A stretch of 64,000 bases of DNA from Oligoflexales bacterium (GCA_045105515.1 JBGCDR010000131.1:1-64000); one strand, 5' to 3'. Counted from the stretch's first letter, positions 34,143 through 61,181 are shown. Made by a program: numbers and translations. The notes: generated by a model not told the origin, from the letters alone.

Positions 34143-34204
34143 ATATACTCCTTTATATGTCATCCCAGCGCTGAAAGCACGTAGGGGGATCCTTTCCAAG
34201 CTAA

Positions 34205-34543: not shown

Positions 34544-34570
34544 AATGACCTCCTTAGATGTTTATGTGAT

Positions 34571-34702: not shown

Positions 34703-34808
34703 CAAGTAGTCAGTCAGGATTGAGATATAGAGTTATAATGAGCAATATCAACTGATTGTGTCATTTTTCTGAAATGGGTACCCACTTGCATTCCATAAGC
34801 AACCCACA

Positions 34809-35528
34809 TCACAAAGTTAGAGTCGCATTGTGATAATTCTTGAATTTCAATGAGTCATTTATTAGTAATCGATTGCTTACTTGGTAGAAGAATTTAGGTT
34901 GATCACTGTTGAATAATTTCCGTTCAATATCCATTACTTTACTACAAATCGACTGACTATCTGAAATGAATAAAACGAGTGGATAAATGTCAGAATTATA
35001 ATATTTTCTTAAAAAGCCATCATAGCGCTGTTCCATTTTAAGGGTGCATTCATACTCAATCGGTAACTCAACTGCTTCAGACTGGATAATTGTAGTAACG
35101 ATTGCATCAGAATTTAGTCTGCATGCTTCATTAGTACCCCATGTCTGGATCTCATTTTCGGTAGCATAGTGCTTAGTCATATTTGAGTTCAATAAACTAT
35201 GGCGAATATCTACCAGAGCAATATCATGATGCACCGAATCTGATTTAATTTCGATTCGTTTTTCATTCCCCTTTCTAACAAAATTCTCAAATGATTTTTT
35301 GGTATTGGAGACAATTCTTTTTCCTTTTAGTAGTAAGCGGCTTCTCTGGATATGTACCAACCTATTGTCTTCTAATTTTCTGATTCTATTACCAAGGCTT
35401 TCTTGAGTAATATCACTGAAGACATCTCTGGTGATCTGCTCATAGGTAGCTGCTTTAACAGCATGTAAATATTTGAAGAGCAAAATATCTCTTTCATCGA
35501 GGTACATTCCCACAATTTGTTGTTTCAT
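34809..35528 (-). CDS. Replication-relaxation (Replic_Relax / MOBC-like) relaxase
   Basis: N-terminal wHTH (LDERD...TYEQI...RIRKL); HHD; D-x16-E-x-E-x3-K-x3-R-Y motif. Confidence 0.7.
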   Translation of the reverse strand: MKQQIVGMYLDERDILLFKYLHAVKAATYEQITRDVFSDITQESLGNRIRKLEDNRLVHIQRSRLLLKGKRIVSNTKKSFENFVRKGNEKRIEIKSDSVHHDIALVDIRHSLLNSNMTKHYATENEIQTWGTNEACRLNSDAIVTTIIQSEAVELPIEYECTLKMEQRYDGFLRKYYNSDIYPLVLFISDSQSICSKVMDIERKLFNSDQPKFFYQVSNRLLINDSLKFKNYHNATLTL

Positions 35529-37060
35529 GTGTTCTCCTTAACTGCCCCGTATGCCCTCTTGTGTTGTTTTGCCACCTTGCTCTTTTCTGCCTCACCCAAC
35601 ATCGGACTAAACAGCTTCTTTTTCTCCTTCGCAAATTGATCTACAATTCCTAGGCATCTAGCTTTGATCGTCTTCTCATCAATAAAAGGAGCCTGAACGA
35701 TCACTTTCTTCGTTCCACAGTTCCAAACCCCTCGACCTGGTATATCAGGGAGGTCACATGCATCCTTTGTTCCCAGGACAATCAAGCTGCCTTGGAGGGA
35801 ATTCGCCCGAAACGCCATACGTCCTGAAATATTCTCAGACACCGAGGTAGGGATAACCTGCCGATCGAGCTTTTGTGTGGCAAGAATCAAATGGATGCTG
35901 GCGGCTCGAGACAGCTTAGAGATGGAATCAGCAAGCTGCCTTGCTTCAAGTGCCGATTGGTATTCTGGATCATTTCTGGGCCGATTCATATACAGAACAG
36001 AGCATTCATCGACACCAACCACGATCCTATCCTTGTGGTCTTTCTCTGGAATGATTTGCTTACGGCTCTTGGCCTCCAGATACCTAAATCTGTCTTTCAT
36101 CTCCTTTTCCACTCGCCTCAAAACCACCAAGGCATCGTCCATGGTCTTTACTACCTTGACGTTGGGACATTTCACAAAGTCGATCATCTCTACGCCGCCT
36201 TTGAGATCAATCAGATACATTTGCAAATGTGGTGATGATTCCAAGAGCCCCATAATAATTTGCTTAAATTGAACCGATTTACCACTGCCTGTGGTGCCTG
36301 CAATGATCATGTGGGGCAATTCATCGATGCGCTGTGTAACGACTCCTTCACCCGACATTCCAAGGAAGAATCCCTCCTTTGGCAAGACATGAGATGCAAC
36401 AAGGTCCGTGTATTTTACTTTCTCTGGAAATTTCATCGTACTAAAGGTTACAACGATCTGCCCTTGGTGCCTGCCATGTTTGATGGATTCGACATTTGTT
36501 CTAAAGAACGACTCCAAATGGCTCTTCTTATCGTTGAAGTTTTCGAGACTGACGCCATTTGCATCAAAAATATAGCTCTTGCGATGTTTGTCATGCCTTT
36601 CGATACGAATCAGTTTTGGTGTGTCTTTCCTACCGTTCTGTATCCCAATCATTTCGAAAAGCTTCTGGTACTTCGTTCTCGTAGCTCTTGCCCACCCCCC
36701 TAAAACAAGAACTAACGGGCTGAAGAACATAAGGAACAGCACAATCCAGTGATACAAGATGGCAATTTCATACATCCACCCGAGGCGCTCCATTGTGATA
36801 AGATTTGGCTCTAATTCATGAATCCAAACGATATGGATGCCATTTGCTGCTAGATAAAAACTGTAATAAAGCAAAGCTATAAGGCTACCCCAGGAGAATG
36901 GGAACCACCTAGAGATGAGAGATTTTAGAAAAACCCACGTACCTATACTCGATACAACAATGAATTCTTGTAGGAACTCATTGACTGCAATTGTTAGTGC
37001 ATCAGGCTGAGACCCTGATTTGTTTTGAAACTTGTCTTTGCTATTAGGATATTTGTCCAT
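35525..37060 (-). CDS. FtsK/SpoIIIE-family membrane ATPase (TcpA-like coupling protein)
   Basis: N-terminal TMs; PHMIIAGTTGSGKS, IDLKGG, VDE and RAASIHLILATQ motifs; no gamma domain. Confidence 0.85.
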   Translation of the reverse strand: MDKYPNSKDKFQNKSGSQPDALTIAVNEFLQEFIVVSSIGTWVFLKSLISRWFPFSWGSLIALLYYSFYLAANGIHIVWIHELEPNLITMERLGWMYEIAILYHWIVLFLMFFSPLVLVLGGWARATRTKYQKLFEMIGIQNGRKDTPKLIRIERHDKHRKSYIFDANGVSLENFNDKKSHLESFFRTNVESIKHGRHQGQIVVTFSTMKFPEKVKYTDLVASHVLPKEGFFLGMSGEGVVTQRIDELPHMIIAGTTGSGKSVQFKQIIMGLLESSPHLQMYLIDLKGGVEMIDFVKCPNVKVVKTMDDALVVLRRVEKEMKDRFRYLEAKSRKQIIPEKDHKDRIVVGVDECSVLYMNRPRNDPEYQSALEARQLADSISKLSRAASIHLILATQKLDRQVIPTSVSENISGRMAFRANSLQGSLIVLGTKDACDLPDIPGRGVWNCGTKKVIVQAPFIDEKTIKARCLGIVDQFAKEKKKLFSPMLGEAEKSKVAKQHKRAYGAVKENT

Positions 37061-37069
37061 ACATCACAC

Positions 37070-38596
37070 CTACACCTTTCTTGCTATAGCTGAAGCTGCT
37101 CCAGAGCTACCACCTGTAGCTGCCCCAACTCCAATATCTTTGGCATCAGTAACTACTTGAGGCGCTTGTTCAGTTTGTGAATCAGTTAAGAATGAAGAGA
37201 AAAGACCGTAGCCGAGGATCAGTGTTGGGAGTGGACCTACAAGAATTTGTAGCCAAGAGTAGAGCGCATAGAATTGATAGAGCTTTGCAGTCACAAAACT
37301 AGCTGAATACAATGAAATTCCATCAGATACCTCTCCCCATTCCATCATAAGGTCATTTGAAACGGCAATACTGGTCATTAAATGGTAAAGTAGGGTCCAA
37401 ATTGGAGTCCACAAAAGGACGGAGACATACAAAGCAAACCAAGCAATGATCACCTTCCAGCGGCCTGCTATGACAAAGAATATGAGCCAAGGGAACAGAA
37501 AGATAAGAAACATCTTTACCATTCCTTTGAGATGAGGGGCTCTTTGAAGATACTCGGAGAATTTCTCGGCTCGCTCTGCGGTTAATGCAGCGCCAACTTG
37601 ATCCCTTTGCCCCAATGTGGACAGAAAACCATCCCACGACCAAAAGCGACTCCAACCGTGGATAATTTTGGCCAACGTACCTCGGACCTCAGAACCTTTT
37701 TGAATGCCTAGACTATCCTCAGTCTGTGCTAGGTAATGGTTTACTAGAGCATTTGAGGCGATGAGATTACGCTCATCGGTCTCAGTGATCTCGGTACGTC
37801 TGATGGAATATTTCCCTGAATAGTTTCGATAGAACTTAGCTCCTTTCCTCTCTGCATAGGACCAAAGGTCTGAACGCACCAAATTTTTCAGGGTGAGGCA
37901 ATTAATCTTGCTTCCATCGTCCAGAGTGATGGGGATGTGCTTCAATTCCTGATCGATTACACCGTTAAGGCCAAAAAACTCGTCAATTTTATCTTTTCTA
38001 GCTGACATTCCAAGCATGGGAAGAATCTTGTCAAAGCAGCTATCTGTATAAACATCAATTTTGTCTCTTAGAGCAGGGTCTTCAATGGTTTGAGAACCTG
38101 CGTAAAGAATAGCTTTGTAGAATGCGCTTGGAGCCTCTAACTGGGAATTAGTGGTGGCAAACAGCCTGTCTACGATTTTGCTACCAAACGCTGATATCTC
38201 CTCTGCTGATCGGGTAAGTAGGTCAAAGATAAAACTAACCTTGTAGGTTTCCTGGATGGGGTTATAACGGGATGATATGTAGCTGTTATTGTGCCAGGAG
38301 TTACGATTGTAGTCTTTGACGCTAGTTTGGCTATTTACCCGCAAAAGAGAAACACCGATCAGAAAGCACGCAATAACCTTTATAAAAAAACTGATTCCAA
38401 CTGTCCTGCCGCCACGAAACCCAAAGGGCATGTATTTGGAAAAGTAGCGCCATGTTCCTACTAGGAAAGTTGCACCAAGGATCAGCAGTAACAGACCCAA
38501 TAATATAGATTCTGAAGTGATAATTTCAATGGATGCCTGATGTAGGTACATTCCTATGTAGGTGTAGTATGCTTCATAGGCAGTTGTGCTAAACAT
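37070..38596 (-). CDS. traG: TraG_N / VirB6-like polytopic membrane protein
   Basis: Multiple TM helices flanking a periplasmic region; follows TraH-like gene; GGAGG RBS before ATG 38596. Confidence 0.6.
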   Translation of the reverse strand: MFSTTAYEAYYTYIGMYLHQASIEIITSESILLGLLLLILGATFLVGTWRYFSKYMPFGFRGGRTVGISFFIKVIACFLIGVSLLRVNSQTSVKDYNRNSWHNNSYISSRYNPIQETYKVSFIFDLLTRSAEEISAFGSKIVDRLFATTNSQLEAPSAFYKAILYAGSQTIEDPALRDKIDVYTDSCFDKILPMLGMSARKDKIDEFFGLNGVIDQELKHIPITLDDGSKINCLTLKNLVRSDLWSYAERKGAKFYRNYSGKYSIRRTEITETDERNLIASNALVNHYLAQTEDSLGIQKGSEVRGTLAKIIHGWSRFWSWDGFLSTLGQRDQVGAALTAERAEKFSEYLQRAPHLKGMVKMFLIFLFPWLIFFVIAGRWKVIIAWFALYVSVLLWTPIWTLLYHLMTSIAVSNDLMMEWGEVSDGISLYSASFVTAKLYQFYALYSWLQILVGPLPTLILGYGLFSSFLTDSQTEQAPQVVTDAKDIGVGAATGGSSGAASAIARKV

Positions 38597-38604
38597 AATG
38601 CCTC

Positions 38605-39906
38605 CTATTGACTGCAACCAATCCCGTCGCCACAATCCATGAAGATGCTATCAACATGACGATTGCTCCTTTGGTCTTGACCGGTGTTCAATTCACGTTT
38701 GGAGGCAATTTTGCGATATTTTGCCCCCTCTTTGTTGATTTGATATAGGACTTTGTTTAAGGGTGTTCGACTTTGATTTTCAATAGAGAGAGTCAGCTCG
38801 ATCTGATCCTTGAATGCCTGACGTTTACGGGCTACATGAGCTTGCTTTTTTGTGGGTAAGTGGGGGTTGGTTCCGATTTTCCCAGCAATAAAGTCAAGAG
38901 TTTTGCTCATATCTTCGTTAAAATTTCCAAGAGCAAGAGCTTCTGATAGTTTGCGGCAGGCTACTCGTCTTTTTTTGTAAGGAAGGTAGCTTAGGGAAAG
39001 AAGTGTTTGTCTGTCTAAAGTGACTCGATTGCCACCGCTAACATCTTTTAAATCTCGATTGGATACTACACTGTAGATATTGGCTCTGGGACCACCTTCA
39101 TTGATTAATTTAGGTAAAAGTCTTTGACACAGGGTTTCATATTTGCTTTCTTTAACCTCCATCAGGTAAGTGCGTGGACTAAATTGGATTCGACGAGGAC
39201 CATAGTCTACCGATACATTACCCCTTTTAACAATGTCATCACCGATAAAGGCTTTAGTTAGGTTGACGATTCGCTTGGCTTCTTTTCCTGTAAAACCTGC
39301 CCATTTCGCAGTGGATTCGATGATCCGATTGTCGTCTTTCTTCTTACCAGTACCAGCCCAGTCTGTTATGTTGTAACTCCCATAGTTGCCGCAACTCTCC
39401 ATGGATTTCTCAAAGTTGCCACCTGTTCGACTAATTGAATTACGAACACATTTAGAGCGTTCCTCATAGAAATCGGAAACCCTTCCGTCGACATATTTGT
39501 TGATGGCCTTACACTGATTGAGGCGCAATTGTGCTAAGAAATTTGCCCTAAGTCTGAACTGCTTGAGGATGGCACACCACGTCGGACTCATATAGCAAGT
39601 CAGCAGCATGGGAGACGAAGCAATGATGTTTCGACCAAGAGCACCGAGATACTTTGTATCCAAAATGTTTTTTAGTGCTGCCCGCATCGTATTGCGAACA
39701 TCAATGCGTCCACAATCTGATGCTATACCAATATCAACTTCCAGGCTGACGGTTCGGTAACGATCAAAGACCGTGTCTTCTAACTCACCAAATGAGCCTA
39801 ATAGGTAGTCCTCAGGTTCAAGTCGATTGGTGGAACGGTAGTCGATATTCCCGGCGAAGATGCTGCTGGGAATGAGGAGCACAAGAAAGACAAAAATTCT
39901 CCCCAT
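38605..39906 (-). CDS. traH: TraH-like periplasmic conjugation protein
   Basis: Signal peptide; CGRID motif; Cys pattern; position before traG. Confidence 0.5.
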   Translation of the reverse strand: MGRIFVFLVLLIPSSIFAGNIDYRSTNRLEPEDYLLGSFGELEDTVFDRYRTVSLEVDIGIASDCGRIDVRNTMRAALKNILDTKYLGALGRNIIASSPMLLTCYMSPTWCAILKQFRLRANFLAQLRLNQCKAINKYVDGRVSDFYEERSKCVRNSISRTGGNFEKSMESCGNYGSYNITDWAGTGKKKDDNRIIESTAKWAGFTGKEAKRIVNLTKAFIGDDIVKRGNVSVDYGPRRIQFSPRTYLMEVKESKYETLCQRLLPKLINEGGPRANIYSVVSNRDLKDVSGGNRVTLDRQTLLSLSYLPYKKRRVACRKLSEALALGNFNEDMSKTLDFIAGKIGTNPHLPTKKQAHVARKRQAFKDQIELTLSIENQSRTPLNKVLYQINKEGAKYRKIASKRELNTGQDQRSNRHVDSIFMDCGDGIGCSQ

Positions 39907-40130
39907 ATTTACCTCCTATAATTTGAATGTTGTTGTTTTTCGGTTGTGTAGGATGTCCCGTAGAGCGTGTTCGAGTTATTGTTTAGATGTTAAGAATCTG
40001 TTGTAGCGGCTTCTAGGGGATGGTCTTTTTGTAGCCAGGAGTTTTGTCGGTTTTGACCATGAACCAGGCAATTGGCTGAGATCCAGGGCCTAGTAGCTTC
40101 TTTTTGGTCAGGTTATTATGAAAAATTTGA

Positions 40131-40784
40131 CTAAGGGGTTGGAGTAAAAATTTGAGTATATATTTTTTTTGCAGCATCTTTCATTGAAATCTTGTCTGTA
40201 TTAATGGTTATGTCGACATCGTCGCTACCAGGTAATGGAAATTCCTCCAAAACTCCCCGAGCAAGGCCTATAAACTCTCCACCTCTTTTCTTCTCTCTTT
40301 CCTGAGCGACTTTTAAAGAACAGTCAATGAGCACGGTGGTTACTTTTCCTCTGTTGATCTCCTGAATTCCATTCTTCAGCTCCAGATTGCTTACAACACC
40401 TTCAATTATTACTCCAATTTCATCATTTACAATTATATTTGCGGTAGGAAATACCTTTGCTCTAACATATGCAGTATGGCGGCCGATTATGGGGGTTATT
40501 TTCGGACCATTTTTATCATTCGTTTTATGAAACATGAGGCCTTCTTTCTTATCACCTCTACTGGTCCATTGCGTTGGAAGGATGTCGTTAAACCCATCCA
40601 CAGACAATAGGACATAAGGCCGATTTTTATTCGCCAATAACGACTGTAAGGATCTGGCGGTTGATGACTTCCCGCAACTGCTATTTCCTAGAATGATGAT
40701 AATTTTTTCGGAACTCTCCAGGTTCAGTGTTTTTGTGAACGTACAAGAGTACAAAAGTATTAGTGGTAAGAACCAGATTATATT
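40131..40784 (-). pseudogene. Chloramphenicol-phosphotransferase-like P-loop kinase, split by IS (5' codons at 42453-42476)
   Basis: GNSSCGKS Walker A, LSVD, RE..RG and GLAR motifs; removing the IS restores MRHNHPNIIWFLPLILLYSC... Confidence 0.8.
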
Positions 40785-42452
40785 GTCGCTGGTGCGTAAT
40801 ATAAAATATTTTAAATAGATAAACGTGGATCGCGGAGATTTTGTAATGGCTACAAATAGGGGTTTTTAAAAAAAGTACTTAATTAAATTCAAATATTGTG
40901 CTGCATCTATAGAGATGGAAAATAACATAAAGCACCAAAATTATGAGTATCTCTCGTCTAGGTTTAAACGACAAGACCGAAACTTCTGCAATAACAATTT
41001 TTCCCAGCAGCAATCATCCTCTGATCAAGATAGCGCAGATTATTCCTTGGGGGGAGATGGGAGAAATCGTTATTGCAGATCTAAAAAAGACTACCAAAAA
41101 AGGTTTTTAAACCTTGGCAACAAGCTCTACCTACGGGTTCATTTAGCCCTTTACCTTTTGCAGAAGATGACCGACAAAACCGATCGAGCACTCGAATGGG
41201 AAGTCAACGACAATGCAGTTTATCAAATATTTTGTGGATTAAATGTAACCCCCTTAAAACGGTGTCCCGATCATACGAATATCCAAAGATTTCGCTCTCG
41301 ATTAAGTCCAGAAATTCAAAGAAAATTAGCCAACATGCTTCCCAAAGTTGCCACGGAACTTGGGTTTGCAGATCCTTCAAAAGCAGATTTCGACTCAACA
41401 ATACAAGAGCCAAACATGGCATATCCATCAGATGCGAATATGTTAATGCAACTTGCTGGCCATGCCCACAAATTTGCAGAATATTTCAAAAATCATATGC
41501 CAATAACCAAGAAAGTAATCAATCCTATCTTGATAAACATCAAGAAAGTAAAAGGAAAATTGAAGGAATACCTTTTTATAGCCAAGAAGAAGTCCGAAGA
41601 AAAAAAAGAAAAGTTAAAAGAGTTTATAGAGCTTGCGAGTCAAGAAATCAGCAAGGTTTCTCAAGTGCATCTAACCGAGAAATGTATGGAGCGCATGCCG
41701 CAGGGGGTTTCTCAGTCCTTCAGAAAGGTGAAAGAGCTCTCAAAAAAAATGTTCGAACAAGCTCATTATTACTTGGAGCACGGAAAAGCCTGCAAAGACC
41801 GACTATATTCGCTACATGCAATAGCAGTTACTTGTTTCAACAAGAACAAACTCGGGAAAAAATGGCAATTTGGTCGAGCATTTCAATTGGCTCGAGTAAA
41901 GGGAAATTTTATGTTTGTAGGCAAATGTACGAATGTACTCATGACAGACAAAAGCTCTGTAATTCCAATGATAGAGGAGCATCAACGTCTTTTTGGAAAA
42001 AATCGACTCGAATCCGCCTCATGGGACAAAGGATATTTCAAGGGTACAAACAAGAAATTTTTAGACAATTTAGAGTCCTTAAAGGACTTTGCATTACAGA
42101 AGCCTGGACAAGCTATAGAAGCTATAGATCAAAAGAAACAAGAGGCATACCTCCACCTAGTCAATCGACGATCTGGAGTGGAACCTTGTATCGGGCATGT
42201 GAAAAATGGAGGGCAATTAAAACGAAGCAGAATGAAATCCGACAAAACAACTCTCGCAGCTGGATATGGGGCTGTTACGGGATACAATCTCCGTATGTTA
42301 ATCCGTCATCAGTTAGGAAAAAAAATCAGTTCAATGTAGAAAGTGACGAGATAGAAAAACATTCAGAATTAAAAAAGTGGAAAAGAAGGAGTTAAAATGA
42401 AAAGACCTTAGAAGTACTGATAATAATGGGTTTTATATTACGCACCAGCGAC
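40785..42452 (+). mobile_element. Insertion sequence (IS5-like DDE), 1668 bp
   Basis: Perfect 22-bp IR GTCGCTGGTGCGTAATATAAAA (40785-40806 / 42431-42452); 6-bp TSD TATATT (40779-40784 / 42453-42458). Confidence 0.93.
40943..42339 (+). CDS. DDE transposase encoded across a -1 frameshift
   Basis: ORF A 40943-41110 (HPLIKIAQIIPW) joins in the -1 frame to a body with DST, DKGY and R..VEP.IGH.K motifs. Confidence 0.8.
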
Positions 42453-42538
42453 TATATTAGGATGGTTGTGTCTCATGAAACGGTCCTTTCAGTCATTTAC
42501 CTACAGCTCCACAAGATGCTTTGTTCAGATTGAGTATA

Positions 42539-45115: not shown

Positions 45116-45461
45116 GGATATGCCCTGGTGCTTTTTTCTTTCTGGGCTTTTTGATGACGAGAGGCTTTAGTTTTTCAGCTACTTGCCAGTGTGACCTTGT
45201 TACAACGGTTCGAACCCATCCACCGCGAAAATAATCACCATTGGGTAGCTCATGGGGGTGCACCCAGATATCAGCGATATGAGGCTTAGTCCTAACAGGC
45301 ACCAACAAGGGGTGGTCCACCTCATCAAGAGCCTCTTTGATTTGACCTACATTGTCGTAGTCTGATCGCTTTTCAAGAAGGTTAAGGCTGGGCGCTCTGT
45401 TCATCGCGCATGAGTTTAGAGCTAGGATTGCTGTGCATCCTAGTAGCTTGAAGTGAATCAT
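45096..45461 (-). CDS. traV: TraV-like lipoprotein
   Basis: Lipobox LNSC; P.RT.P..A.IWV.P...NGD motif. Confidence 0.75.
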   Translation of the reverse strand: MIHFKLLGCTAILALNSCAMNRAPSLNLLEKRSDYDNVGQIKEALDEVDHPLLVPVRTKPHIADIWVHPHELPNGDYFRGGWVRTVVTRSHWQVAEKLKPLVIKKPRKKKAPGHIHGGRHD

Positions 45462-45470
45462 CGGTGACCC

Positions 45471-46706
45471 CTATTTTAAAAGATTGCTAAGAAATGAGAT
45501 CCCACCTCGTTGGTCGAAATGGCGATTAAAATACCAATTGGGAAGAGAAACTGGCTCTTGAATGATGAGCCAAACTTCTTGGCCTGAGCCTACATTGATG
45601 GTTGGAAGGAGTTTTTCTGCATGTTTGAGATACCAGTTAGTAACTGTTGCCGCTGCGTTGCTAGCACCAGAAGCTGCTATATATCGGCCTTGGGAGCCGG
45701 TGATGTTCATCGTAGAGCCGCCATTTGAACCCATTGTCGTGGTAGTCTGGGCCTGACTCACAGCTTTGCCGATGCCATCGACGACTGATGCCAGAAAGGC
45801 CATACTTGCCACTCTGTCCTGTTTACTATTGAGTGCACCCATCACAGCAAAGGAGTTGTCTTTGCCATCCGCAATATAGCCGCTCAACTTCCTCTCAAAC
45901 GACCTCCCTGATTTAGAGACGCAAGAAATTTTGGTGGCCTGCATTTCAACCCGTTCAATGGACATGTTGCCAGTAGACTTTGCAATAATGAAGCACCCCG
46001 ACAGATCAATACGACTCTTATTTGGTCCAATAAAGGCATAATCAGCCTGAAGAAGCACTGGGAGTGCCTTGCCTTCGGGGGCTTCAATTCCAGTGAGCAG
46101 CTTTGCTTTCACGAAGGATCCCGAAGGAAGCCTAACTCCAAGCTTGGCTGGTGTTTTACTTGCTTGAACCGGAAAAGAAATGATTTCTGGGCCTTTTCTC
46201 TTTGTGCGCTTGCGCCTCTTTGAGGATTTCGAGGCAGAGGTGACAGTCGATGGTCCGTTAGAAACAATTGTCGTAGGAAAATTCTTCAAAGCATTTGAAA
46301 ATTCTGGTGTTGAGAGAGGAGAAAGTGCTTCCCTTTGTTTAGTCCCCATATCCGTGGTAAGTGGCTCTTTATTTTCTGCTCTGGGAGTATCCCGTTTGTT
46401 AGCAAGTAATTTTTCATATTTGGCTATGATCGCTGTTATGGATTCCAGTTTTTCCTCAAGATCCTCGACCTTATCGTTGTAAATTTTGTCCTTTCTTTTG
46501 TAGAGGTCATTGTTTCTAGAAATGACCCTTCCTGAGTTGAAACTATGCTCCTTATTTTGGTATGTGATAATCTTAGTGTCATGGTGTTTGCTGAATAGAT
46601 ATGTAGCTAAAAGTAGTATAAATCCTAAGGCCAAGAGTAAAATACCAGGTTTCTCACGGACTTTTAGAATCGCCTGCAGTAGGTCAGACTTATTAAGATA
46701 TTTCAT
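45471..46706 (-). CDS. traB: TraB/VirB10-like T4SS core protein
   Basis: Single TM, coiled coil; LPSGSFVKAKLLTGIEA and DLSGCFI motifs. Confidence 0.85.
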   Translation of the reverse strand: MKYLNKSDLLQAILKVREKPGILLLALGFILLLATYLFSKHHDTKIITYQNKEHSFNSGRVISRNNDLYKRKDKIYNDKVEDLEEKLESITAIIAKYEKLLANKRDTPRAENKEPLTTDMGTKQREALSPLSTPEFSNALKNFPTTIVSNGPSTVTSASKSSKRRKRTKRKGPEIISFPVQASKTPAKLGVRLPSGSFVKAKLLTGIEAPEGKALPVLLQADYAFIGPNKSRIDLSGCFIIAKSTGNMSIERVEMQATKISCVSKSGRSFERKLSGYIADGKDNSFAVMGALNSKQDRVASMAFLASVVDGIGKAVSQAQTTTTMGSNGGSTMNITGSQGRYIAASGASNAAATVTNWYLKHAEKLLPTINVGSGQEVWLIIQEPVSLPNWYFNRHFDQRGGISFLSNLLK

Positions 46707-46715
46707 GATGACCTC

Positions 46716-47498
46716 TTACTTACTATTTGTGATAGGAGCTACAGGTAAACTGATGGAATAGTAAACCGAAGTGGGCTTGGCTACGATTCGCAATAGTGTC
46801 GAATTGAGCTGAGGCTCTTGTTTTTGCTTTGGGTAAAGGATATTGGAATCAGATTGCGATAATAAGGCTACATTGGGTCTCCCCAAGGTAAGACTCTTGA
46901 CATCAAGGGCATAGGTTTTGTCTTTGCTGTTGTTGGTCACTTTAAAAATATACCCGTGGAACTTTGGTCCAGTGTAAACCTTTACTAAACGAGCGGTAAT
47001 ACCATCAATTCCAGTCCTAACCGTTTGACTAAGAGTGCGTGCTTTGTAGCCAATGACGCGATCCACTCGGATCATAGCCTTCATCAACTCGACCTCGGAA
47101 ACACTGCCTCCTCGACTCGATCTTGCAATAGGATCAATGCGGAGGCTTTTGGCCTTGAGATCATAGAAAGTATTGGTTGTTTCATGAAGTTTAGAAACTA
47201 CTGTGTTGAGCTTGGCATTGACCACCACATCATTTGCTAAGATGAAAGTAACGTTACTACGAGCCTTCTTTGAACGAGGCTTAATGGAAAGGATTCGGTA
47301 ATCTGGCTTATTGGGATCTGCTGGCTTGATCTCAAATTTACTGGCCTGGGTGATCGTCTTAACTTCCTCGTCAAAGCGAAGAAGCGTCGAAACTCCATAG
47401 GATATACTGATATTTTCCCTTTCAGAACCATAGTAAATAGTTTTTGCTTGAACCGAGGAACAGAGCAGCATTGCTAGTAACGGAATGACTTTTGTCAT
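46716..47498 (-). CDS. traK: TraK/VirB9-like protein
   Basis: Signal peptide; ELMKAM motif; position between traE and traB. Confidence 0.65.
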   Translation of the reverse strand: MTKVIPLLAMLLCSSVQAKTIYYGSERENISISYGVSTLLRFDEEVKTITQASKFEIKPADPNKPDYRILSIKPRSKKARSNVTFILANDVVVNAKLNTVVSKLHETTNTFYDLKAKSLRIDPIARSSRGGSVSEVELMKAMIRVDRVIGYKARTLSQTVRTGIDGITARLVKVYTGPKFHGYIFKVTNNSKDKTYALDVKSLTLGRPNVALLSQSDSNILYPKQKQEPQLNSTLLRIVAKPTSVYYSISLPVAPITNSK

Positions 47499-47510
47499 AC
47501 CTACTCCTTA

Positions 47511-48224
47511 CTATTGAGGTTTTGAGATCGTTTTGCGGGTCTGAAAGCTTTCTAACTTAGACCAAGACAAGGAGGTTATTTGAAGATACCAGCGTTTTTC
47601 TCGATCTGGTGGCACCAACTTGATGGTCATTTCAACAACTTGATCTTCATGTCCTAGGGATTGTCCAGAAGCATAGAAATCAGCTCGAACGAATGCTGTA
47701 ATAGAGTAATAGCCATCAGAATTGGAAATGATCTTCTTGCTTTTAACTCGGAAAATTTGTGCTAGATCTTCATGCTTTGTCTGCTGAATCCACTCCTTGG
47801 AATCGGCAGCAAACTGAATTTTGAGTTCAGGACTCATGAACCGCTTCAAGGACTCATATTGTTCCGTGATGATATGGGCATTGATATTTCCAAGGGTGCT
47901 CAAGAAATCATTCACAGCATCGTTGACATACGAATCTGGCACAGACTGAGGAGTAGCTGTAGTAAAATCCAGAACCCCAGGGGCTAAAATGTATTCCTTT
48001 ACCCGTAACTGTTTGTATAGTGATGATATTTCCATCCTTGAAATTGCAAAATAGCCAATAAAGAGCAGAGCCAGCAGACCCAGGAGGTAAGTGAGGATAA
48101 GCTTTTCTCGAAGAAGTGCTGCTCGATAAGAAATGTACTTAGGTAATGATTGAAAATTGGTCTTTGATTTGTTTGGTGGATCGCTTGTTTGTTTATGGAA
48201 GTTTTTTTCTTTTGGTCCAATCAT
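47511..48224 (-). CDS. traE: TraE/VirB8-like protein
   Basis: Single TM then NTF2-like pattern; position after traL. Confidence 0.65.
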   Translation of the reverse strand: MIGPKEKNFHKQTSDPPNKSKTNFQSLPKYISYRAALLREKLILTYLLGLLALLFIGYFAISRMEISSLYKQLRVKEYILAPGVLDFTTATPQSVPDSYVNDAVNDFLSTLGNINAHIITEQYESLKRFMSPELKIQFAADSKEWIQQTKHEDLAQIFRVKSKKIISNSDGYYSITAFVRADFYASGQSLGHEDQVVEMTIKLVPPDREKRWYLQITSLSWSKLESFQTRKTISKPQ

Positions 48225-48232
48225 TTAGGCTC

Positions 48233-48544
48233 CTAATCTGAGTATTTTTTCTTTCCCCCTGGATTGATAATACCGGGAAGATTCATTCCAAAATTCTTGT
48301 AGGGGTAGTGAAAGTAGATCCCTTTTTTGTTTCGTCTTCTGACATAGGGGCCGACACCTAACGTAAAGATCATTGATAGCAGCATCAGCTGCCAGGAATT
48401 GATGACGATGCCAAATAACAACAATGCCGCTAGGGCGGCGAAGACTTCCCCAAGTTCGAAATAATCAAAGACTGTTATGGGCTTGTCGACAGTTTGTGAT
48501 ACTTTCGTGGAGTACTTCTGCCTCATTGAATCGTAGTTATGCAT
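48233..48544 (-). CDS. traL: TraL/VirB3-like protein
   Basis: VDKPITVFDYFELGE, two TMs, G..FHY..K.FG pattern. Confidence 0.7.
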   Translation of the reverse strand: MHNYDSMRQKYSTKVSQTVDKPITVFDYFELGEVFAALAALLLFGIVINSWQLMLLSMIFTLGVGPYVRRRNKKGIYFHYPYKNFGMNLPGIINPGGKKKYSD

Positions 48545-48698
48545 TTAATCTCCTGTACGGGAATGGGATCCTCCATGTATTTATATGGGCATCTTTCTGG
48601 CTCTTGAAAAGCTTGAGTAGACGTGGTTTAGTTTAAAATTGGTTTAAACGATTGCGGTGAAGTTTTTGCCAGAAAACACTGCCGATGGGTGAGCAAAC

Positions 48699-49679
48699 AT
48701 GAAAAAAAAGTTTTTAGGCGTTAGCTATTTTGTGCTTTTTGGGCTTGTTGCAGCATATGCATTTGAGCGATGGGCGGTGCGATCAGAACTTGAAACATTA
48801 AAAGTAAAAGGGGAACTGATTAAAGTTGAGGGTGCTTCGATGCATATTCAATGTCTTGGATCTGGGAGTCCAACAATAATTCTTGAGTCAGGACTGGGTT
48901 CTGACATGACATCTTGGGATAATATAGTTGGTCCAGTTAGCAAAATGACAAGAGTTTGCAGGTATGATAGGTCTGGGTATGGTTTAAGTGAAGCCAATCC
49001 TTCAGAAGCAACGATCGAGAATCAATCTCATCGTTTAAAAGAGCTTTTAAATGCTGCTAGCATAAAGGGACCCAAGATTCTAGTCGGTCACTCGGCCGGA
49101 GGACTCTACGCTCGTCATTTTGCTACGCTCGAACCAGCTGTTGTCGGTATGGTTCTCGTTGATGCTTCTGCAAGCCTTTCAAAAGAAGACTTCGAAAAAT
49201 TTTTCACAATACCAACTTCTTCCAAGATCAAAGGAAGACTTAATTTGATTGCCTCAAAGTTTGCATTAATCAGAGTGAAAAGTTGGTTTTTACCCAACCC
49301 TAAAGATATTCATCCAAAATGGTATCCAAATCAGAACATCTTTAGCAGTCGATACATTGAAGCTTTGTTTCAAGATGACAATATTTACTTAAGCGTTCTA
49401 TCCGCACCAGAGCCAGATCTTCACAATATTCCAATCGTAGTGATCTCAAGAGGGAAGAACATGATGAATAATGGCTCAAAAAAGAGCGTATTTGATATTG
49501 CTTGGGATGGTTGGCAAAAAAAACTACTCAATCTTTCATCGCATAGTTCGCAAATTATTGCTGAAGAGAGTGGGCATGGGATTCAAGACAATCAACCCGA
49601 ACTCATAGTAAATGCGATAGAGAGCCTTCTGAAAGAGGGTGCAACACCTCCAAGAGCGATAAACCACTTGAATCCTTGA
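48699..49679 (+). CDS. Alpha/beta hydrolase (cargo)
   Basis: YDRSGYG, GHSAGG and SGH motifs; N-terminal TM. Confidence 0.88.
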   Translation: MKKKFLGVSYFVLFGLVAAYAFERWAVRSELETLKVKGELIKVEGASMHIQCLGSGSPTIILESGLGSDMTSWDNIVGPVSKMTRVCRYDRSGYGLSEANPSEATIENQSHRLKELLNAASIKGPKILVGHSAGGLYARHFATLEPAVVGMVLVDASASLSKEDFEKFFTIPTSSKIKGRLNLIASKFALIRVKSWFLPNPKDIHPKWYPNQNIFSSRYIEALFQDDNIYLSVLSAPEPDLHNIPIVVISRGKNMMNNGSKKSVFDIAWDGWQKKLLNLSSHSSQIIAEESGHGIQDNQPELIVNAIESLLKEGATPPRAINHLNP

Positions 49680-49704
49680 GATCAAATAAGAAAGAAGAAA
49701 TGGC

Positions 49705-50202
49705 ATGGAAATAAGATTAGAAAATAGTGGCGATCATGAATCCATTCGAAATGTGAATGACAACGCTTTTGAAACATCCTCAGAATCTGAAATCGTGGAC
49801 AAACTACGATCTTTAGGTGAATTGTTACTGTCTTTGGTAGCAGTAGTTGATGGTGAAATTGTGGGTCATATAGCATTTAGCCCCATGAATATGAATGGTT
49901 TCAAGACGAAGTTTGTTGGACTCGGGCCAATGGCTGTTATCAGATCCCAACAGCGTTATGGAGTCGGATCCGCACTTGTAAAGGAAGGGATCAAAAATCT
50001 TAAGGAGCAGGGGTATTCAGCTGCTTTTGTGTTGGGGCATCCAGAATACTATCCTCGTTTCGGTTTTAAGCCTTCTTTTTCAAATTTTGAAATAAAGTCT
50101 AAGTACGATGTTCCTGATAACGTATTTATGGCATTTGAACTACAAGAGGGTGCCCTCTCGGGAGTATCTGGACTGGTTCAATACTCCAAAGCCTTTGGAT
50201 GA
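49705..50202 (+). CDS. GNAT N-acetyltransferase (YhbS-like, cargo)
   Basis: LGPMAV...QRYGVGSAL and VLGHPEYYPRFGF motifs. Confidence 0.9.
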   Translation: MEIRLENSGDHESIRNVNDNAFETSSESEIVDKLRSLGELLLSLVAVVDGEIVGHIAFSPMNMNGFKTKFVGLGPMAVIRSQQRYGVGSALVKEGIKNLKEQGYSAAFVLGHPEYYPRFGFKPSFSNFEIKSKYDVPDNVFMAFELQEGALSGVSGLVQYSKAFG

Positions 50203-50243
50203 CAATTACTTATTGAGCGGACGAAAAGCATACAGAATGAATC

Positions 50244-50617
50244 CTATTTCATGCTGTGGAAAATAGACCCTCCTCCTCCATCTGACATATCAAAGATGTT
50301 TTTAATCCACATAGGGACCGTTCCCATGATGATGGCTCCCATGATGCAAACGATGGCCATTGCAAAGCGCTGTTCCTTGAGGTTCCATCCAGCGCCAAGA
50401 ATAGCCATGCCTGCTAAGATCCTGGCACCAAATTTAAAGAGAAAGCTGTCTACGATATGAAGGAGCGTCCCGGCTGCGGTCAGCTTACTAATGTCATCGG
50501 ACCCAGGAATCGTGCCAGCAGCTAAGGCAATACCTGCATGGAGAAGTCCAAAGATAAAGATCATAGTTAAGGATGGAAACGACCATCCTAACGAAGGAAT
50601 TTTTTTTTTTTTGCCAT
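50244..50617 (-). CDS. traA: TraA/VirB2-like pilin, frameshifted at an A13 tract in the leader
   Basis: Signal peptide ending ALA plus two hydrophobic helices; RBS-linked ATG 50617 is out of frame with the body by one base. Confidence 0.6.
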
Positions 50618-50626
50618 AGGGCGCTC

Positions 50627-51355
50627 CTATTTGGTTGATAAAGTATTAAGAATGCTCTTGGCTTTTTGGTATCCATTGATTCGATAGACTAGCTTTTTGC
50701 TAGTATCAGCCACAAAGAGCACAGGCCAGGAATTGATCTTCTTTCTAGAAATTTCCTGAGCACTCGCTTTGACCACCGCAAATGGAACTGGAAAATTGGG
50801 TTTCTTGCTGTCGATTTGCCTTACTTCTACGAAGTAGCCCATTTTTTGTAAATCTCTTGCTGTAACCATCATCCGTTCACAATGAGGACAGGTAGAATCG
50901 AAATAGAGGCGAAATCTAAAACGTTTAAGATCCAAATCTATGGGTTTTATTTTGCTTAATTTTTCAGTAAGGATTTCTCTTTCTTTTGGTTTGAGAGTCT
51001 TTGAATTTTTGGCCAAGTATGTTTTCATGTGATCGTGAAGCTTTACCATCAGAGTGTTCTTCTTCTCAATCAAGGCAAACCAACGCTTGATATTCTGATC
51101 AGTTGGATTTCTTGCCAATTCCATAAACGGTTTAGGTGGTTTATGATCTCCTTCCTCAAAAAATTCGTCGTGCTTAGGGTTGGTGTATTTTTCCCAGTCA
51201 AATTGCTTTTCTTGTGGTATCTTTGGCTCTATCTTAGTCGGTGACGGTTTGGCTGATGTTTTTTCATTCCAATAGTCAATTCTTCCTCCAAAATAGTCAA
51301 AGCCCAGAGCCGTAGAACAAAAAAGCAGCATTACAATGAGCCATGGTCTTCGCAT
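50627..51355 (-). CDS. Periplasmic thioredoxin-fold conjugation protein (TraF/TrbB/TrbC-like)
   Basis: Signal peptide; CPHC and WP motifs. Confidence 0.65.
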   Translation of the reverse strand: MRRPWLIVMLLFCSTALGFDYFGGRIDYWNEKTSAKPSPTKIEPKIPQEKQFDWEKYTNPKHDEFFEEGDHKPPKPFMELARNPTDQNIKRWFALIEKKNTLMVKLHDHMKTYLAKNSKTLKPKEREILTEKLSKIKPIDLDLKRFRFRLYFDSTCPHCERMMVTARDLQKMGYFVEVRQIDSKKPNFPVPFAVVKASAQEISRKKINSWPVLFVADTSKKLVYRINGYQKAKSILNTLSTK

Positions 51356-51369
51356 ATTTCCCCCTTTTG

Positions 51370-52890
51370 CTAGGTAATTGCTTCAATTTCACTTTCATCA
51401 ATGACTCCTTTCTGGGCAAGAGCAATACACTCATCCTTCAAGGTTGTAGGCATTCTTTTGTCTCCTAAGTCTGATTTTTCCAGATATTCAATGATTGCTA
51501 TACGCCCTGTGATTCCCCCAGTGCATTGCACGCATCCATCAGGATTTGCTCGAAATAGCCCATTTTCTAATTTTATCCTGCATTTTGGACAAATGCGTCG
51601 AACAAGGCGTTGTGCAACCGATAGGCGTAGATTGGTTTTGATCGTAAATTCGTCAACACCAAGGTTAAGCAAGCGATCCACAACTTCCCTGGCTCCATTT
51701 GCGTGAACTGTGGAGAGGACCAAGTGGCCTGTTGAAGCGAGTTTCATGCTGAGATCTGCTGTTTCTTCATCTCTTATCTCTCCTAGAAGGATAATATCTG
51801 GATCTTGGCGCATAAGTGCTTTTTGAAAGTCATTGAAGTCCTCCTTAGTTTCTACATTTGATTGGGTGATGCGTTCTAGACTCTTTTCGACTGGGTTTTC
51901 TAGAGTTGAAATGTTTTTACCGAGTCGATCCATTTCTTCTAGCAGTGCATATAGGGTCGTTGTTTTTCCACTTCCCGTCGGGCCAGAAATGATGATCAAA
52001 CCTTCTCGTTTTAGAATGTTGCACTTGAGCATCTCGATTTTATCTTTACTTAAGCCAATATCTTGCAAGCTCAATTTTTGTTCCTGGTACTGGATGCGTA
52101 ATACGATCTTTTCACTGCCACCTGCTGTGGGCATAGAATTTGCCCGCACATCGATGGCCATGGACTTAAAACATGCCCTCGCATCTTGAGGTTTTGAAAT
52201 AATTGCTAGGTCCAGGTTTAGTATCCATTTGAGTTTGTTGGTGATTGGTTCAGTGTGTTCAGCCTCTATGACCTTCCAGTCTTGTAGCGCTCCATGGGTA
52301 CGAAACCGGATTAGGAATTTATCTGCAAATGGTTCGAAATGAATATCACTGGCCTTTAGTTTGCAGGCAGCTATAAAGCACTGATGAATGAGCTGTGTGT
52401 AAGGGTTTTCTTCAGAAATTCTTTGGTCACAAGTTAGATCACCCGCAAGGACGATGTTTGATTTTTGTTTCTTATCGTCATGATTCTCTCCCTGTAAAAG
52501 TCGAAATACAGACCCTTTGACCCTAAGAAGGGTCACTTCTAGCTCGAAGAATGCCTCAACAGACTGAATAGTCACATCCGAAAAATGATCAGCTACTAGA
52601 GTTAACCTCCTTGTGGTTAAATCAATTGCTATAACGTTGAACGGATTCAACTGTTCTTGAAGCGTTAAAGGTACTTTGGACTTCTCTGTCTCCAGTTCTT
52701 TGAATGATTTGTTGCACTCTGGCTTAATGAACTGAATCAATAGACTGTCGAGGGTTTGTTGATTTATGTAGCCCAATTCGACCATCAGCCTACCAACCTT
52801 CTCTTTGCGGTACTGATAGATCTTTAGGATAGTTCGCAGTTGCTCTTTTGTGCAATGATGTTTTGAATGAACGAATTCAGCAAATTTCAT
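51370..52890 (-). CDS. GspE/PilB-family secretion ATPase with degenerate MshEN-like N-terminus
   Basis: ASDIHFEP, GPTGSGKTTTLY, RQDPDIILLGEIRD, TGHLVLST and CPKC/CVQC motifs; TGATG coupling to upstream gene. Confidence 0.9.
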   Translation of the reverse strand: MKFAEFVHSKHHCTKEQLRTILKIYQYRKEKVGRLMVELGYINQQTLDSLLIQFIKPECNKSFKELETEKSKVPLTLQEQLNPFNVIAIDLTTRRLTLVADHFSDVTIQSVEAFFELEVTLLRVKGSVFRLLQGENHDDKKQKSNIVLAGDLTCDQRISEENPYTQLIHQCFIAACKLKASDIHFEPFADKFLIRFRTHGALQDWKVIEAEHTEPITNKLKWILNLDLAIISKPQDARACFKSMAIDVRANSMPTAGGSEKIVLRIQYQEQKLSLQDIGLSKDKIEMLKCNILKREGLIIISGPTGSGKTTTLYALLEEMDRLGKNISTLENPVEKSLERITQSNVETKEDFNDFQKALMRQDPDIILLGEIRDEETADLSMKLASTGHLVLSTVHANGAREVVDRLLNLGVDEFTIKTNLRLSVAQRLVRRICPKCRIKLENGLFRANPDGCVQCTGGITGRIAIIEYLEKSDLGDKRMPTTLKDECIALAQKGVIDESEIEAIT

Positions 52891-53918
52891 CAAAAACCCC
52901 TGCATGCTGCTTTAATTCCGGCCAACCATAGATAGGCAAGACCACCAGTTCCTGCATCAATGGTGCAATTGGAGCGTTGCCAAACAACATATAGGAACTT
53001 AGTGGGTTTACCTGAGAACCTTCCTAGTTCATTGACAGCATTGACTCTCAATACAGCAATATTTTGTCCCTCCTTAAAACTGCTCGATAACTGTGGATAG
53101 ATCATTTGCCATTTGTCACTCCAGTTACTGGAAACGCTTCGAAAGACATCACCCCCAAGGCTTTTTATTCTAGAAGCAATCATCAGCGATGCTGTGGTTT
53201 GATCAGAGGATATGGTGGTTCCGGTTCTGGGTAGGTGAATGCCCCAACCTGTGCATACAGGTGCATCTGTTGGCGGATACTTCCACATGCGACCCATCCA
53301 TGGGTTTGAGCACATGGGTTCGATGCCACCACCGGTTACTCCCCAGTGCCCAGTAGCAGAAGAAGCGGCCCCCTTTAACAAACATGCCTTGGGGCTGGCT
53401 GCCCAGGCTTTGAATTGAGGATGCCACATATCAGCAAAACCAGTACGCCAGTTACTACTTAAATGCTCGCTTGCTGCTGAGAAGCAGAACAGATCGGGCA
53501 CCCCACCGCCACAGGGGAGCCCTGCAAAGACTTCCTGAGTGAATGGAACATTGATGACGTGGGCATGGTAGGAGAAGGCTCCGTTATCGCTCTCAGCAGC
53601 AAAGGGAAGCCATCCCCCCATACGCTTCAATTGGAAATTGACTCCCGGCAATCCATAAAACATGGTTTCTCTGGGATGATTAACAACCTCAATAAAATAT
53701 TTCGGCAAATTATAGCTTACATGAGCACAAGGCCATGGTGGTAAAGGAAACGGGCTTGGGCACATAGCAAACTTAACTCGGAGACCAAATTCGCGGCTAA
53801 ATAATGGAGTATTAACCACGTCACAAACATTAGGAAAATTAAAGGCACTTGTCAGCGTGCTAATGTTTAACAAACCTACAATGGCACCGACTCTCGCTAA
53901 CCTGCTTTTTAAGGGCAT
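52890..53918 (-). CDS. traU: TraU-like cysteine-rich periplasmic protein
   Basis: Signal peptide; many Cys; WG..PRTG, WQMIYP and VWQR..C motifs. Confidence 0.7.
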   Translation of the reverse strand: MPLKSRLARVGAIVGLLNISTLTSAFNFPNVCDVVNTPLFSREFGLRVKFAMCPSPFPLPPWPCAHVSYNLPKYFIEVVNHPRETMFYGLPGVNFQLKRMGGWLPFAAESDNGAFSYHAHVINVPFTQEVFAGLPCGGGVPDLFCFSAASEHLSSNWRTGFADMWHPQFKAWAASPKACLLKGAASSATGHWGVTGGGIEPMCSNPWMGRMWKYPPTDAPVCTGWGIHLPRTGTTISSDQTTASLMIASRIKSLGGDVFRSVSSNWSDKWQMIYPQLSSSFKEGQNIAVLRVNAVNELGRFSGKPTKFLYVVWQRSNCTIDAGTGGLAYLWLAGIKAACRGF

Positions 53919-61178: not shown

Positions 61179-61181
61179 ATC

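Follow-up and report, generated by a model that had tools for sequence, protein, structure and literature searches.

Positions 34,809 to 53,918 of a 64,000-nucleotide stretch from an Oligoflexales bacterium (GCA_045105515.1 JBGCDR010000131.1:1-64000; the whole stretch is referred to as the window) probably represent the transfer module of an ICE (integrative and conjugative element). In this module, a reduced F-like type IV secretion system (T4SS) and a motor ATPase of the PilB class are combined with a TcpA-like coupler and a MOB_C-like relaxase (TcpA+MOB_C), a pair that is exchangeable with a VirD4+MOB_P module; we assign this reading a probability of about 0.72. At 31.7-55.4 kb of the window, the genes of the element follow the order integrase, excisionase, methylase, orf112, relaxase-like nuclease, TcpA/FtsK-like ATPase, TraG_N, TraH, TraC, TraV, TraB, TraK, TraE, TraL-like protein, pilin-like protein, TrbB/TraF, PilB/GspE, TraU and sigma-70 region 4 regulators, with the transfer backbone entirely on the minus strand. 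The genes for integrase, excisionase, relaxase-like protein, coupler-like protein and VirB4 ATPase are all located within this one unit. The combination of an F-like machine, a motor ATPase of the pilus type and two DNA-handling proteins otherwise known from Gram-positive plasmids is unlisted in the excerpted text of current conjugation reviews. As the first-pass annotation of this DNA had surmised, it matches no described ICE family: in the literature searched, subscription papers aside, there is no description of an F-like T4SS with TcpA/MOB_C and PilB.

Two DNA-processing modules on one F-like machine

The strongest argument that the TcpA+MOB_C pair does the job of VirD4 and a relaxase comes from a sister element in another genome (G058:C19). 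This element possesses a TraU-PilB-TrbB-pilin-TraL-E-K-B-V-C-H-G_N machine, an orf112-xis-int tail and a groEL site as in the window, and its TraC is sister to the TraC of a TcpA-type element in the same genome (100 in the Shimodaira-Hasegawa-like approximate likelihood ratio test). The slot of the relaxase, however, holds two other genes, one for a MobC/NikA-like protein and one for a PF03432 (MOB_P) relaxase; upstream of TraU, there are VirD4 domains (TrwB_AAD_bind, TraG-D_C, T4SS-DNA_transf). Because the machine is shared while coupler and relaxase are of the VirD4 and MOB_P types, the DNA-processing module has been exchanged on one machine, and the TcpA+MOB_C pair is one of two alternative modules. 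A further difference from the window concerns PilB, which has 390 aa in the sister element and is devoid of the N-terminal domain. The two element types amount to a natural swap experiment, by which coupler-channel specificity, as well as the movement of single- versus double-stranded DNA by an FtsK-like coupler, become testable. The VirD4 domains of the sister element lie in a frame of 997 aa (L051:2483-5476), at about residues 206-642, and are followed by a TraU domain (700-971); this frame is either a VirD4-TraU fusion or consists of two genes without an intervening stop in the call of open reading frames (ORFs).

The host genome, a metagenome bin of 6.29 Mb in 461 contigs (90.9% complete, 4.8% contamination), contains TcpA-like genes, relaxase genes that match them and TraC genes in five copies each (contigs C131, C64, C439, C350/C48, C21/C105 and others). 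Whole-genome family searches returned 0 hits each for PF02534, PF06986, PF12477 and PF03432; the absence of another coupler (PF02534) or relaxase (PF03432) family was counted in favor of the TcpA+MOB_C reading.

A scan of one genome per species yielded eight relaxase-encoding loci, five of which stem from metagenome-assembled genomes (MAGs) of Oligoflexales, Bacteriovoracaceae or Deltaproteobacteria; L011 repeats an Oligoflexales MAG. The longer of these loci display the order traB-V-C-H-G_N-tcpA-relax-orf112-(MTase)-xis-int, MTase being the methyltransferase gene. Counted over 131 Bdellovibrionota genomes from 55 genera, the relaxase (E 1e-10) occurs in 16 genomes (12 genera) and the TraC lineage (E 1e-100) in 17 genomes (13 genera), the latter all in the taxonomic order of the window; nine genomes contain both, eight TraC only and seven the relaxase only. 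The gene order relax-tcpA-...-traC is repeated in G058:C1 and G055:C98. The first-pass annotation had described a chimeric conjugation system. Its joining of an F-like machine with a TcpA-like/relaxase pair stands, but not the notion of a single chimera: the gene order recurs in paralogues and in loci of other genomes, and the elements constitute a real ICE family, conserved and probably conjugative, that is spread in one order of Bdellovibrionota. Given their variable cargo and defense genes and their multiple copies in one genome, they are probably one of the principal ways in which genes flow through this little-studied phylum.

The candidate coupler and relaxase

The putative coupling ATPase (35525..37060, minus strand) matches FtsK_SpoIIIE (PF01580, 4.1e-21) and possesses a hydrophobic N-terminal part, whose stretches were judged by eye. 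In a phmmer search against all sequences of the Protein Data Bank (PDB), TcpA of plasmid pCW3 ranks first (6o1x/y/z/w, 3.8e-24, residues 129-462), followed by FtsK at about 1e-12 to 1e-15 and then by EccC; neither TrwB nor any other VirD4 protein is retrieved at E 0.01. A tblastn search of 72,556 plasmids yields 785 records, mostly from Bacillus, Clostridium and Enterococcus, the best matches being C. perfringens TcpA with 27% identity over 80% of the query. In a phylogenetic tree of couplers (26 rows, 501 columns), the ICE proteins form a clade of their own (95/98), separate from the chromosomal FtsK of related genomes (100/100); F TraD and Myxococcus VirD4 are placed apart from this clade on branches longer than 5. 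The chromosomal FtsK rows were taken from relatives, and the host genome itself contains no chromosomal FtsK with PF01580. Hence, the FtsK-like protein does not show the clustering with VirD4/TraD that would have refuted the first-pass annotation, and pCW3 TcpA is its closest solved relative. The overlap of its gene with the relaxase-like gene, already reported in the first-pass annotation, is plain: the former ends in ATGA, where the latter starts, with an AAGGAG box ahead.

This overlapping gene (34809..35528, minus strand) encodes a MOB_C/Replic_Relax-like putative relaxase of 239 aa, with an N-terminal winged helix and a C-terminal PD-(D/E)xK-like nuclease domain. In an AlphaFold 2 (AF2) model built from 23 sequences, with a predicted local distance difference test (pLDDT) value of 92, residues 1-90 correspond to a MarR-like winged helix (Z up to 11.1), and residues 101-234 align to LlaBIII, a Type ISP enzyme, in its nuclease domain (Z 9.0, 112 residues, root-mean-square deviation 2.9). 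The predicted nuclease domain behind a winged helix is what the protein has in common with MOB_C (pAD1 TraX, CloDF13 MobC) and PF13814; excerpts of the literature relate MOB_C to PD-(D/E)xK (PMC12857230) and equate PF13814 with the MobC of CONJscan (PMC5357655). Across the relaxase family, PF13814 is recovered in 9 of 23 sequences at E 1 and in 61 of 131 diverse members at E 0.01 (best 3.8e-13), and the neighbors of the candidate in the ESM Atlas are clusters of the Replication-relaxation and MobC families (0.96-0.97). The family is large: among 1.84 billion representatives, its clusters of 50% identity number 1228 at E 1e-3, falling to 539 at 1e-10 and to 209 at 1e-30. D141 is invariant in the 131 members, and D14, K25, R48, S96, H101, D102, E124, N125, E158, K164 and R168 are at least 90% conserved. 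No match was obtained by tblastn against the 72,556 plasmids or by a profile search of the PDB sequences.

A complex model of the relaxase with the soluble part of the coupler passes the test of the modeling tool and supports binding of the two proteins: ipSAE values are 0.60, 0.64 and 0.64, compared to 0.00 for the best control. The mark used for ipSAE is reached by 116 of 157 solved complexes and by 2 of 215 mismatched pairs, counts that hold roughly here, custom alignments being the input of the model. The runs share at least 79% of their contacts, with a partner pLDDT of at least 82. In the modeled interface, the C-terminal tail of the coupler (residues 489-510) lies on the nuclease domain of the relaxase; Y504 of this tail is invariant in 8 of 8 sequences.

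The gap of 265 bp downstream of the relaxase gene (34544..34808, minus strand) is a candidate origin of transfer (oriT). It contains palindromes or repeats that are specific to each copy, in the window GGGTACCC at 34772-34787, and about 50 nt after them the conserved motif CTGACTGACTACT at 34705-34717. In an alignment of five copies, this motif is kept among otherwise diverged sequences, with the consensus CTGACT(G/A)A(C/A)T(A/G)CT. It is present once in the window (0.03 expected) and four times in the 6.29 Mb genome, each time in the intergenic spot behind the relaxase gene of an ICE copy; as the pattern was derived from ICE copies, it is only its absence elsewhere that is informative. The loci L011 and L006 contain the motif likewise. 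The region may function as oriT. It is followed by orf112 (34205..34543, minus strand), which encodes a small conserved protein found after the relaxase in four other copies of the host genome (C64, C439, C105, C48) and in six of the eight loci of other genomes; it is absent from the short loci L007 and L009 and present in the VirD4-type sister element. A search of families gave no match for orf112, which may have an accessory role in the relaxosome. A single-sequence AF2 model of this protein was poor (pLDDT 59) and was not used.

Compared to the pCW3 Tcp system and to elements of the Tn916/ICEBs1 type, which belong to mating-pair formation (MPF) type FA (MPF_FA), the likeness lies in an FtsK-like coupler with a hydrophobic N-terminus whose gene lies directly upstream of a non-HUH relaxase gene; the same arrangement is given for TcpA elements in excerpts of PMC5357655. 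The differences are a diderm host, a channel that is F-like instead of MPF_FA, and a relaxase that is MOB_C-like instead of MOB_T or MOB_M. Here, a TcpA-like coupler is found outside MPF_FA and Firmicutes, with an F-like T4SS and relatives in Oligoflexales and Bdellovibrionota. Two rules are thereby broken in a diderm, as far as they are worded in the excerpted sources. First, the VirD4 family is said to span all Gram-negative T4SS (PMC12857230). Second, TcpA is described as limited to a subset of MPF_FA (PMC12857230), with its homologs confined to Firmicutes (PMC3548315). In streptococcal integrative and mobilizable elements, MobC is found with VirD4, and TcpA never with MobC or canonical relaxases (PMC5357655).

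Four Firmicute plasmid matches were examined. An overlap between an FtsK/SpoIIIE gene and a replication-relaxation gene is present in two of them, the Thermoanaerobacterium plasmid pMU3262 and the Bacillus cytotoxicus plasmid pE81-53. MOB-suite assigns pE81-53 to MOBC; the remaining two resemble pCW3 and are typed MOBM. The couplers of pMU3262 and pE81-53 are 22-32% identical to that of the window, but their relaxases are not detectably similar by tblastn, and an F-like T4SS is lacking. In pMU3262 (L033, NC_017998.1 78.6-88.6 kb), a pilus cluster of the Tad/Flp-like kind (CpaB, an AAA ATPase and an ATPase of the T2SS/T4P/T4SS family) is situated about 5 kb away from the pair, another case in which an FtsK+replication-relaxation module is paired with a secretion-superfamily ATPase.

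Such plasmids, which carry the pair without an F-like T4SS, could also be taken to mean that the TcpA-like/Replic_Relax pair is an embedded cassette for mobilization or for replication and segregation, the F-like machine being MOB-less or serving another substrate. The name of the Pfam family, replication-relaxation, would fit this proposal, as would TcpA-like and relaxase pairs without a nearby TraC of the ICE lineage, found in G047 (in several copies), G048:C1 and G044:C6. It follows from these pairs that the module can live as a separate mobilizable unit, and they may be mobilizable elements using the ICE machine in trans. Yet the slot of the pair between traG_N and orf112-xis-int is fixed in every copy seen, the same slot is occupied by a canonical relaxase in the sister element, the gene numbers in the host genome are equal (5/5/5), and neither VirD4 nor MOB_P occurs anywhere in it. 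We thus consider an embedded cassette quite unlikely and retain the pair as the DNA-processing module of the ICE. The TraC-less pairs of G047:C1, a single-contig genome of 2.2 Mb, are located for instance at 128465-130301 and 1633841-1635629.

The F-like machine and its GspE/PilB-class ATPase

Families of the machine were assigned by Pfam and NCBIfam, and weak calls were rechecked on orthologs from the paralogous copies and from other genomes. All genes are on the minus strand. TraU (52890..53918) is recognized by PF06834 (1e-9), and the TrbB/TraF-family thioredoxin (50627..51355) has a CPHC motif and matches TIGR02738 (9.9e-6); a genome search with PF13728 finds the thioredoxin gene in C350 and C439. 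The pilin candidate orf106 (106 aa; 50244..50564) displays a TraA/VirB2-like topology. It is called on the basis of a signal peptide, a pair of hydrophobic segments and, as in F, a gene position upstream of traL; it has no significant family match, and one of four orthologs gives TrbC/VirB2 at a non-significant E of 0.14. The region 45096..48544 encodes TraV (6.6e-6), TraB (VirB10-like; PRK13729 1.1e-27, with a VirB10-type domain), TraK (TraK_C 7.8e-4, recovered in 3 of 4 orthologs), TraE (6e-4) and a TraL-like protein, for which TraL is found weakly in three of four orthologs (E 0.017-0.062). The VirB4 ATPase TraC (42539..45115) is F-like and very divergent (PF11130 2.8e-24; TIGR02746 3.4e-56, under the equivalog cutoff). 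PF06122 identifies the TraH-like protein (38605..39906) in 7/7 orthologs at E 2e-6 to 3.6e-3, the window copy having 3.6e-3. The polytopic membrane protein encoded at 37070..38635 resembles the N-terminal part of TraG, with TraG_N in 2 of 7 orthologs (2.7e-5, 2.2e-4). Among 11 unassigned ORFs, PHROGs returned nothing useful except one weak match for the relaxase.

The gene order A-L-E-K-B-V-C and H-G is that of the annotated F plasmid. In this respect, the first-pass annotation is borne out: the tra genes are co-oriented and in F order, and traU and a CxxC thioredoxin gene accompany them. Its description as one block requires amendment, since contiguity is interrupted by two insertions (40131-42339 and 48699-50202). 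The first (40131..42339) consists of a CPT-like kinase gene (40131-40754, minus strand) and an IS5-family transposase gene (40915-42339, plus strand), the second (48699..50202, plus strand) of cargo genes for an alpha/beta hydrolase and a GNAT acetyltransferase. Both are absent from the paralogues, as traH directly adjoins traC in C64 and C439, and no cargo is found between pilin and traL in C64, C439, C350 and C150. The uninterrupted backbone of C64 and C439, which has no space for extra genes, identifies both pairs as insertions in the window copy.

Also in line with the first-pass annotation, TraG is reduced to its N-terminal part; the protein has 521 aa as opposed to 938 aa in F and is without the C-terminal half. 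VirD4/TraD, TraI, TraN and TraW were, as proposed, found by Pfam scan neither among the element ORFs nor on the contig beyond the window, whose right part might have carried them, and VirD4, TraN and TraW_N are missing genome-wide. TrbC has no match among the element ORFs, the genome at large not having been searched for it.

The gene between traU and trbB (51370..52905, minus strand) encodes a hexameric ATPase of the GspE/PilB class (T2SSE 1.4e-87). GspE and PilB score about 1e-85, as against 5e-15 for VirB11. The gene occupies this place in 7 of 7 elements in which the interval is visible, and the PilB-type ATPase is a constant of the machine. Between the ICE copies, identity amounts to 57-65%, with Walker A kept and C439, C442, C458 and C461 invariant (5/5), whereas the chromosomal PilB homologs of the host are 39% identical to the ICE ATPase, and in the core only. 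The N-terminus matches the MshE-like motif for cyclic di-GMP weakly (23.9 bits versus a cutoff of 38), and the motif fits loosely. With VirB11/TrbB/TraJ and the R64 and PAPI-1 pilus ATPases, the protein shares its nature as a secretion-superfamily hexameric ATPase within a conjugation module, and it may have a VirB11-like role; in the case of PAPI-1, a type IV pilus is required for transfer, according to an excerpt of PMC12857230. It differs from VirB11-type proteins in its GspE/PilB scores, its tetra-Cys motif and its company, given that the compact backbone contains no gene for a PilC/GspF-type platform, a secretin or a type IV pilin.

What is more difficult is the assignment of this machine to MPF type F (MPF_F). 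In common with F, IncC and IncHI, the window has the A-L-E-K-B-V-C and H-G order, TraU and TrbB/TraF. The F-specific accessory proteins TraU, TraH, TraV, TraK, TraE, TraL, TraG_N and TrbB/TraF are present, several of them weakly or in orthologs only. Among VirB4 models, the TraC F-type is the best with 190.6 bits, compared to 109 for VirB4_CagE and 92 for the G-type, all values being below the cutoffs; almost all plasmid matches of TraC are TraC/TrhC, the best being F/IncC/IncHI TraC at 20-24% identity. The Myxococcus plasmid pYRE, another TraC match, was set aside as a different, VirD4-type system. In a quick VirB4 tree of 16 rows with three MPF_F references, the ICE TraC clade (97) is placed outside the F+IncC+IncHI clade (99) on very long branches; a single clade of ICE and MPF_F is not rejected by the approximately unbiased test (p 0.108). 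Moreover, the tra region of F lists no T2SSE- or VirB11-family gene, and the window element is without the TraN, TraW, TrbC, TraG C-terminal half, TraD and TraI of F. The genome-wide absence of TraN, TraW_N and VirD4, the half-length TraG-like protein, the GspE/PilB ATPase and the tree position of TraC would argue against membership in MPF_F.

A more far-reaching proposal is a separate class of diderm conjugation machine outside MPF_F, with a GspE/PilB-type motor permanently joined to its F-like channel. In its TcpA branch, the element would be processed and pumped as double-stranded DNA by a translocase of the FtsK type and a nuclease of the restriction-endonuclease type. The pumping of duplex DNA has reportedly been suggested earlier for pCW3 TcpA. 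We regard this extended proposal as improbable; if true, duplex DNA would for the first time have a route through a Gram-negative T4SS.

The reduced F-like set, from which the mating-pair stabilizers TraN and TraG-C are missing, and the added PilB-type motor could likewise point to a T4SS that serves mainly protein secretion, killing, or DNA release or uptake in a predatory or host-associated bacterium, and the host phylum includes predators. This possibility is highly improbable: integrase, excisionase, relaxase and coupler are linked to the machine in all copies, the element occurs in multiple paralogous copies with variable cargo, and no effector-like conserved genes are present in the backbone.

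The conjugative reading entails the following course of events, whose biochemical steps we infer from the computed gene content, gene order, conservation, family relationships and module swap. Integrase and excisionase would cut the element out. The 239-aa nuclease with its winged helix and PD-(D/E)xK domain would bind the copy-specific repeats just downstream of its own gene and then cleave, as a MOB_C-type relaxase, at or near CTGACTGACTACT. A membrane-anchored hexamer of the TcpA/FtsK-like ATPase would capture the relaxase by its own C-terminal tail and feed the DNA to a machine made up of TraA-like pilin, TraL, TraE, TraK, TraB, TraV, TraC, TraH, the TraG N-domain, TraU and TrbB/TraF. The GspE/PilB-class ATPase may take the place of VirB11, dock under TraC and help to power assembly or transfer. 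To our knowledge, F-type pili have no VirB11; a constant ATPase of this class in an F-like system bears on the question of how such pili are powered.

The element, its insertions and its boundaries

Besides the TraC-less pairs, the tree position of TraC and the rough calibration of the complex model, several observations count against a transfer module of the proposed kind. The window relaxase itself is under Pfam significance, with no match to Replic_Relax (PF13814) at E 0.01, which sets it apart from MOB_C/PF13814; a Foldseek search of its model against the PDB gives nothing at E 1e-3, restriction enzymes and Can2/YaeQ nucleases appearing at non-significant E, and the match to the LlaBIII nuclease domain is moderate at Z 9.0. 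In the coupler tree, the ICE clade, a clade of the T4SS-less pairs and the Firmicute TcpA-like proteins with FtsK form a polytomy, in which a sister relationship to TcpA is not separated from one to FtsK. Given the 4.8% contamination of the bin, the five copies may belong to different strains. No att repeats of at least 13 bp were found beyond chance 13-mers. No excision joint was detected in the element-bearing contigs of three public DNA runs, probably the source samples, a result that is uninformative on excision; no RNA run containing the stretch was listed. Finally, the IS5 element between traH and traC and the cargo insertion are situated inside the operon of the window copy and may impair its expression.

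The two insertions, the cargo between pilin and traL being on the opposite strand, raise the question of whether the window copy is in decay, a remnant of the family that can no longer be transmitted; the lack of an att repeat and the splitting of a defense gene to the right by another insertion sequence (IS) would agree with this. Both insertions are intergenic, however, and all 18 backbone ORFs are of full length without an internal stop. Decay of this copy is therefore an unlikely explanation, although one to be kept in mind, and a transfer module of the composition described above remains our preferred reading.

The left end of the element is formed by a tyrosine integrase gene (31714..33129, minus strand; Phage_integrase 1.6e-21), which adjoins the 3' end of groEL (29854-31515). 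It is followed by an excisionase-like HTH_17 protein (33126..33356, minus strand; PF12728 7.5e-9), kept beside int in C105, L006 and L010, and by an N6/N4 DNA methyltransferase (33390..34199, minus strand; PF01555 6e-23; PADLOC MTase_II 2.9e-43), a backbone gene of most copies (C64, C439, C105, C48, L008, L010, L011). At the other end of the transfer backbone, two proteins containing only region 4 of sigma-70 are encoded on either side of orf137 (53909..55404, minus strand; kept in C64, C439, C350 and C323), which may have a regulatory role. A divergent module (55584..58847, plus strand; kept in C64, C439, C323 and C144) encodes a helix-turn-helix protein, orf123, orf379 and a HATPase_c protein. 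It may be sensory or regulatory and, as a companion of the transfer operon, may sense a signal for transfer. The product of orf123 has 123 aa and by eye a receiver-like N-terminus, and the HATPase_c domain is the only one in a protein of 441 aa.

Beyond this module, the cargo consists of genes for a hydrolase, MepB, a GrpB-GNAT protein, an APH-family kinase and a glyoxalase. The contig extends 12.9 kb past the window with a split defense reverse transcriptase (RT) of the UG19 class, an IS, a PrimPol-DUF3987 helicase and an HTH_3 protein, followed by ordinary genes. In contig coordinates, we place the ICE at some 31.6 kb to roughly 69 kb, beside groEL; its right end could not be fixed by synteny with the groEL regions of four relatives. 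There are no tRNA genes within the window, and hence no tRNA att site. In the public runs, contig breaks fall at 31485-31508, in the GGM-repeat end of groEL, a sequence common to other organisms, and the depth per contig is similar for element and flank. The contigs of these runs are fragmented over 35100-38000, i.e. at the TcpA-like gene, and contain variant letters there, which is consistent with the presence, in the same samples, of the second copy on contig C105 (95% identical).

Some of the cargo (40131-40754, 49705-50202, 60057-62702) resembles antibiotic-modifying families, namely a CPT-like kinase, GNAT acetyltransferases, an APH-family kinase and a protein of the glyoxalase/bleomycin-resistance family, all of them far under the equivalog cutoffs. 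The UG19-class RT (PADLOC RT_UG19, minus strand) is in two pieces, at 62796-64508 of the contig (profile 135-558, E 7.7e-83) and at 65546-65956 (profile 2-134, E 4.6e-48), separated by an inserted DDE_Tnp_4 IS element at 64613-65508. Integration recurs at the 3' side of groEL, genes for related integrases being located beside groEL in four genomes: the window, L006, G058:C19 (L052) and G007:C1 (L055). In G007, the insert consists of the PrimPol-helicase, xis and int only, which suggests that a small satellite-like element shares the groEL site and the integrase with the ICE.

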